DNA of 64,000 nucleotides from positions 28,210,001 to 28,274,000 of the forward strand of contig NC_091990.1 in NCBI RefSeq assembly GCF_044704955.1, given 5' to 3'. Shown piece by piece: positions 44,195 through 44,228 of the stretch. A program made the position numbers and the translations under genes. Numbering within the stretch: the first letter of the stretch is position 1; each line of letters begins with the position of its first letter. Source of the stretch: Pristiophorus japonicus. Its lineage: Eukaryota. Below the pieces are notes generated by a model, which had not been told where the DNA came from, ran no database searches, and worked only from the letters and a program-made list of their open reading frames with translations.

Positions 44195-44228
<34 letters not shown>

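Follow-up and report, generated by a model that had tools for sequence, protein, structure and literature searches.

Introduction

The closest described counterpart of the repeat reported here is the transmembrane (TM) microsatellite of MICA, a (GCT)n run in exon 5 with alleles A4-A10 and A5.1 that, in the available text of PMC5326783, encodes 4-10 alanines. A meta-analysis and review cites Steinle et al. for the view that the in-frame alanine alleles leave surface expression unchanged, and the same paper also mentions a helix-rotation hypothesis for the alanine repeat (PMC4753467). For anchor length as such, excerpts of two further studies indicate that ER exit of yeast polyleucine transmembrane domains (TMDs) becomes fast once they reach 20 leucines (PMC3358343) and that partitioning into the plasma membrane and into rafts in cells changes with the length and surface area of the TMD (PMC11224323). 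Here we analyze a shark gene from Pristiophorus japonicus that resembles CD276 (B7-H3) and the B7 and butyrophilin proteins in its leader-IgV-IgC-TM-short tail plan with phase-1 introns, and in which the core of the predicted anchor is written in ATA codons.

Gene family and structure

Within the window, by which we mean the whole stretch of 64,000 nucleotides that was analyzed, a leader-IgV-IgC-TM gene is present in three minus-strand copies in tandem (copies A, B, and C, Table 1), set among LINE- and LTR-like repeats. A search of the genome with the DNA of the last exon gave three matches among three candidates, all of them within the window, and a protein search with the IgV domain gave 28 matches among the 98 scored, in which the three copies stand at no less than 96% and the others at no more than 59%. 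Copy B is a four-exon B7-family (CD276-like) gene whose frame and splice sites are intact, the exon junctions of both A and B have AG acceptors and GT donors, and the leader of copy A falls just outside the window (L004:562-619). The spliced open reading frame of copy A is identical to P0001 (293 aa), a UniRef protein of Pristiophorus japonicus named 'CD276 antigen homolog', and that of copy B (297 aa) is identical, from residue 21 of the entry, to P0021, UniRef 'CD276 antigen-like' of the same species. The poly-Ile run is therefore already in the public annotation, where both entries, which may themselves be derived from this assembly, do not count as independent support. A degenerate 24-base tandem repeat (43830-43958), with copy numbers that differ in B, A, and C, also lies in the 3' untranslated region of the gene.

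Table 1. Coding exons and ATA repeats of the three copies, in positions of the window.
Feature	Position	Strand	Remarks
Copy C last exon	19158..19330	-	ATA ATA ATG at 19245-19253; TAG at 19272-19274 replaces Trp and precedes TM core
Copy C IgC exon, broken	21110..21411	-	in-frame TAG at 21333-21335; 22-bp inversion over acceptor
Copy C IgV exon	23571..23924	-	open; 6 of 354 bases differ from copy B
Copy C leader exon	25298..25349	-	diverged yet open; GT donor
Copy B last coding exon	44112..44305	-	stalk, TM, short basic tail, TGA; spliced to IgC (X7 record 26)
Copy B (ATA)10	44199..44228	-	poly-Ile TM core
Copy B IgC exon	44931..45218	-	C2-set, CD80-like; without canonical cysteines
Copy B IgV exon	46350..46703	-	V-set; best solved relative CD276; joint 45218-46350 in X5, X7
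Copy B leader-peptide coding exon	47802..47859	-	spliced-frame reconstruction
Copy A last coding exon	60881..61062	-	Trp-to-Leu 22 aa; covered by spliced contigs
Copy A (ATA)6	60968..60985	-	poly-Ile TM core
Copy A IgC exon	61688..61975	-	sequence comparison, spliced frame
Copy A IgV exon	63107..63460	-	sequence comparison, spliced frame

By its domains, exon plan, and predicted fold the protein is a member of the B7 family, the CD276 label being that of the database. The IgV domain matches Pfam V-set (E 3.7e-13) with C43, W60, and C119 invariant in the alignment and CD276 as its top PDB match, and the IgC domain matches C2-set_2 (E 1.2e-05, 25.7 bits against a cut-off of 21). In the structure model of copy A (mean pLDDT 79), a pair of Ig domains precedes a single long helix, predicted at residues 234-279 of P0001, and the fold matches of the model are the ectodomains of CD276 (9lme), BTN2A1/3A, and PD-L1. 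The exon structure and the model together give the leader, single predicted TM helix, and short tail of a B7-type architecture.

A disulfide between the B and F strands of the IgC domain is typical of B7 proteins, although it is not obligatory. The canonical B- and F-strand cysteines are absent in all 21 aligned shark and ray proteins (P0001-P0021), in every one of which the B-strand site is Phe or Leu and the F-strand site carries no Cys, and the Cys-less domain still folds as an Ig domain in the copy A model, with pLDDT 80-94 over IgC residues 141-230. A subfamily of eight proteins (for example P0004 and P0005) has one IgC cysteine after the C-strand Trp-Tyr and another before the F strand, and it is possible that this pair forms a replacement disulfide.

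The poly-Ile core of the transmembrane segment

The repeat is a pure triplet run lying in frame in the TM-coding exon of two intact genes, A and B, in which its length differs. On the minus strand, the repeat coordinates and codons of the first-pass annotation (ten units in B, six in A, and ATA ATA ATG in C) prove correct. An (ATA)6 run occurs at only these two places in the 64-kb window, a count reached by 0 of 100 shuffles (mean 0.00), and of the three perfect triplet runs of at least six units in the 124 kb scanned, two are the repeats of copies A and B. The hydrophobic stretch from Trp to Leu had been put at 26, 22, and 19 residues for B, A, and C. The first two values stand (44172-44249 in copy B), but the third does not, because the Trp codon of copy C is TAG and its 19-residue stretch is never made. 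The supposed third length variant (I3, 19 aa) thus belongs to a copy broken by a stop and is untranslated, and since copy C is broken, the genuine comparison is between B and A together with the forms found in reads.

In a search for longer proteins, 20 of 143 candidates matched; the matches are all shark and ray proteins, and 19 of them belong to other genes. None of these 19 relatives has an Ile run longer than three near the C-terminus, and the poly-Ile run is therefore a lineage-specific expansion. The closest relative, P0002 of Heptranchias, has LLIII where copy A has ILIIIIII, and we infer that a short ancestral Ile run grew in the Pristiophorus lineage. By hydropathy scales used only as a rough guide, the apolar stretch is 17-26 residues long in the 18 relatives with a TM (23 in eight of them), 29 in copy A, and 33 in copy B, so that B lies about 10 residues above the family mode. 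Separately, the proteins of a paralogous subfamily (P0003, P0006, P0009, P0012, P0014, P0015, P0018, and P0019) have a conserved Glu in the middle of the TM, which suggests pairing with a partner chain.

Spliced contigs and repeat length

The stretch is present in seven runs, none of them recorded as RNA, and five of the seven were compared with the window. X1 is a DNA run. X5, X6, and X7 behave as RNA, an assignment made because of their spliced joints, the kind of run not being on record. The IgV-IgC joint, with GT-AG ends, is found in X5 and X7 and is absent from X1, one X7 contig (record 26, 1126 letters) runs from IgV through IgC to the complete last exon with its stop, and in X5, X6, and X7 the loose ends at the last-exon acceptor are the end of the IgC exon. 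The possibility that transcripts leave out the repeat exon, on which the first-pass annotation had made its claim depend, does not hold, as these spliced contigs join IgV, IgC, and the repeat exon. We rejected a processed pseudogene as the source of the contigs, given the mere three genomic exon matches and the missing joint in the DNA run, and also a splice donor inside the last exon (near 44161) as the main form, given that the X7 and X5 contigs read past the stop. It is thus supported that the ATA run supplies, in frame and in a spliced exon, the codons for the core of the predicted transmembrane helix.

Compared with copy A, the X5 contig has 0 gaps, the X6 contig has 112 letters over 115, and the X7 contig has 414 over 417, so that the X6 and X7 contigs are three bases short, with none of these listed outside the repeat zone. 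Compared with copy B, the X5 contig has 21 gaps (9+12) and the X7 contig 24 (9+15), where the nine are a known UTR deletion. These values fit 6, 5, and 5 repeat units in the X5, X6, and X7 contigs, respectively, the three-base loss being placed in the repeat by elimination and length arithmetic. The aligner leaves out the gap row within the repeat zone, with the caution that such rows are mostly false. The locus, repeat included, contains no repeated 30-mer, and therefore a 31-mer graph, with which we take the contigs to have been built (k=31), should not collapse the repeat, and X6 and X7 agree with each other in the loss. An (ATA)5 form that is missing from the assembly is most likely the explanation for the shorter contigs. 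This probable five-unit form appears in two of the three spliced runs and is not among the three genomic copies. Its absence from the assembly makes length polymorphism among haplotypes likely, and the earlier description of the repeat as probably polymorphic gains support from the two of three spliced runs that are three bases shorter than copy A across it, these runs being at most three samples of one study in which animals and tissues, as well as alleles and paralogs, are indistinguishable. The ten-unit length of copy B is taken from the assembly alone. The repeat zone is unbridged in the listed contigs of X1 and X3, and (ATA)10 is unbridged in those of all runs, which is uninformative because the method skips repeats.

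None of the contigs is identical to A or B; bases typical of A, of B, and of C occur together in the spliced sequences. Among the spliced IgV pieces listed, those of X5 and X7 are A-type and those of X6 are C-type. In X7, an A-type IgV is accompanied by an IgC in which B-type and C-type bases stand beside new ones, and by a last exon that combines B-type coding bases with the A-type UTR deletion. Contig depth in X1 is about 9 where the pieces are C-type, about 20-23 where they are common to A and B, and 30 for IgV, which fits three real copies, depth being no measure of copy number.

Duplication, probable gene conversion, and the broken copy

Copies B and A lie in head-to-tail duplication units of about 13.5 kb (36766-50267 for B and 50157-67021 for A). 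In the A unit there are two additional LINE-like insertions (~51558-54374 and ~59139-60643), one of which cuts the 3' region just beyond the last exon. The duplicated units differ by about 3% overall. Copies A and B are 98.6% identical over 3.4 kb, and 7 of their 642 IgV and IgC bases differ, four of the differences changing a residue. The divergence of B from C is patchy, ranging from 0 to 28 differences in bins of 100 bases, where misalignment may contribute to the highest values. An IgV exon that differs by 1.7% lies beside an intron that differs by 15.3%, and parts of the introns differ by close to 1%, a pattern suggestive of gene conversion among the copies. We also considered selective conservation of the IgV of copy C and rejected it: synonymous sites and some intron stretches are equally homogenized, which points to conversion instead. 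Elsewhere in the window, a fragment at 35558-36425 resembles the upstream intron sequence of B and C, has no leader match, and could represent either what is left of a further copy or a repeat, and a 3-kb GC-rich minisatellite with a 19-base unit occupies 11033-14066.

The IgV of copy C is 98.3% identical to that of B, and everything downstream of it is blocked. A 22-bp micro-inversion (21390-21411) with short inverted ends (ATTG...CAAT) destroys the IgC acceptor, and, as its sequence reads, copy C cannot make a membrane anchor. C-type contigs in X6 include an IgC-to-last-exon junction, and that junction carries the stop-bearing IgC. If the IgC exon of copy C were skipped, the frame would enter the last exon and stop before the TM, giving a secreted IgV-only product. 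An array of 20-base units (24200-24652) lies in the leader-IgV intron of this copy.

A hypothetical mechanism and its alternatives

We now put forward, with moderate confidence, a mechanism in which the length of the ATA run (10, 6, and likely 5 codons) drifts by slippage and is tolerated because the helix serves as a passive membrane anchor. We propose that, in the Pristiophorus lineage, a pure ATA run arose from an Ile-rich ancestral anchor in which about three Ile stood side by side, and that slippage by whole codons then added or removed Ile, leaving the frame and the chemistry unchanged. The extra residues would be taken up by helix tilt or would spill into the apolar stalk, and surface delivery would therefore be little changed. 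Repeat length would be reshuffled together with other variants as the tandem copies undergo gene conversion and unequal exchange. The intact forms measure 21, 22, and 26 residues from Trp to Leu, the 21 being the likely five-unit form, and all of them exceed the 20-residue ER-exit transition seen in yeast. On these grounds, and with the in-frame MICA alleles cited as having no surface effect, the first-pass proposal of a tunable TM length is not supported. It should be noted that the apolar stretch of copy B, lying so far above the family mode, may have some effect.

The alternative that bears most directly on this mechanism is that the repeat is a selected tuning knob. In this reading, a change in TM length (about 0.15 nm for each residue) or in helical register (about 100 degrees for each residue) would affect the surface level, raft partition, or dimer geometry of the ligand, and selection would keep several lengths. 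Tuning would account for lengths that differ between near-identical paralogs, and likely among haplotypes too, and for a poly-Ile run that is unusual for the family, and it can draw on the available reports that longer TMDs favor plasma-membrane and raft localization (PMC11224323) and on the helical-register hypothesis raised for MICA (PMC4753467). However, the intact lengths all lie above the transition of the yeast study, as given in its accessible part (PMC3358343), and the run is absent in 19 of 19 relatives and is therefore not a conserved device, and we consider such tuning unlikely. A more elaborate version, to which we give little credence, is a polymorphic poly-Ile rheostat, with anchor lengths of 21, 22, and 26 residues that govern surface level or partitioning into rafts and are shuffled by conversion, and with copy C supplying a secreted IgV-only decoy that has a near-identical binding face.

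Two further readings concern copy B itself. It could be a recent redundant duplicate under relaxed selection, its ten units being a mildly harmful expansion on the way to C-like decay, as the 98.6% identity of A and B and the evident decay of a local copy would allow. The listed spliced IgV pieces, A-type in X5 and X7 or C-type in X6, would agree with this, but contigs drop variants and therefore cannot show that B is silent, the frame and splice sites of B are intact, and the spliced contigs that cover the IgC and last exons include B-type bases, so that we regard a decaying copy B as quite improbable. The last reading, which we hold to be very improbable, is an assembly artefact, either a consensus error in the ten-unit run or two haplotypes of one locus set in tandem, in which case I10 and I6 would be alleles and not paralogs. 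High A/B identity and spliced contigs that combine A-type exons with a B-type 3' continuation are what such an artefact would produce. Yet the ~13.5 kb units differ by about 3%, with two large LINE-like insertions also setting them apart, a consensus error of four units would presumably be large for a 31-base repeat, and the variation in length is also seen in spliced contigs that are independent of the assembly. Tolerated slippage in a passive anchor is the reading that we prefer.

Comparison with known systems

The nearest relatives, the 'CD276 antigen-like' proteins of Heptranchias, Heterodontus, Scyliorhinus, Rhincodon, Leucoraja, and other cartilaginous fish, are 38-69% identical to P0001 over the full length and share its domains and its Cys-less IgC core, but their poly-Ile runs are no longer than three and their apolar stretches are 17-26 residues against the 29 and 33 of Pristiophorus. 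The shark protein departs from CD276 and the B7 and butyrophilin family in its identity of about 30% to CD276 in the fold alignment, in an IgC domain that lacks both canonical cysteines, and in having the TM and the tail in one exon. The subfamily is not described in the available part of the shark B7 literature (PMC12151841), and among the titles and abstract openings of the open-access literature we found no natural poly-Ile TM microsatellite.

What the locus offers is a natural series of TM lengths on an otherwise near-identical immune ligand, and therefore a clean test of in vivo relevance, which is unsettled for MICA. If the variants behave alike, the locus serves as a coding STR marker and as an example of the length tolerance of single-pass anchors. 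It differs from MICA in that ATA encodes Ile in a B7 V-C protein of a shark, whereas GCT encodes Ala in an MHC class I-like gene, and in that the shark length variation is also found between tandem paralogs. No A5.1-like frameshift allele is seen in the shark, where copy C is instead truncated by point stops and an inversion. The likeness, as far as the available MICA texts extend, is that in both cases an Ig-domain immune ligand has a triplet STR in its TM exon, whose in-frame lengths span a similar range. The first-pass analogy with MICA is thus sound in architecture, with an in-frame triplet repeat, a TM exon, and spliced transcripts on the shark side, and the shark B7 repeat is a real, expressed, probably polymorphic coding STR and a new MICA-like case.
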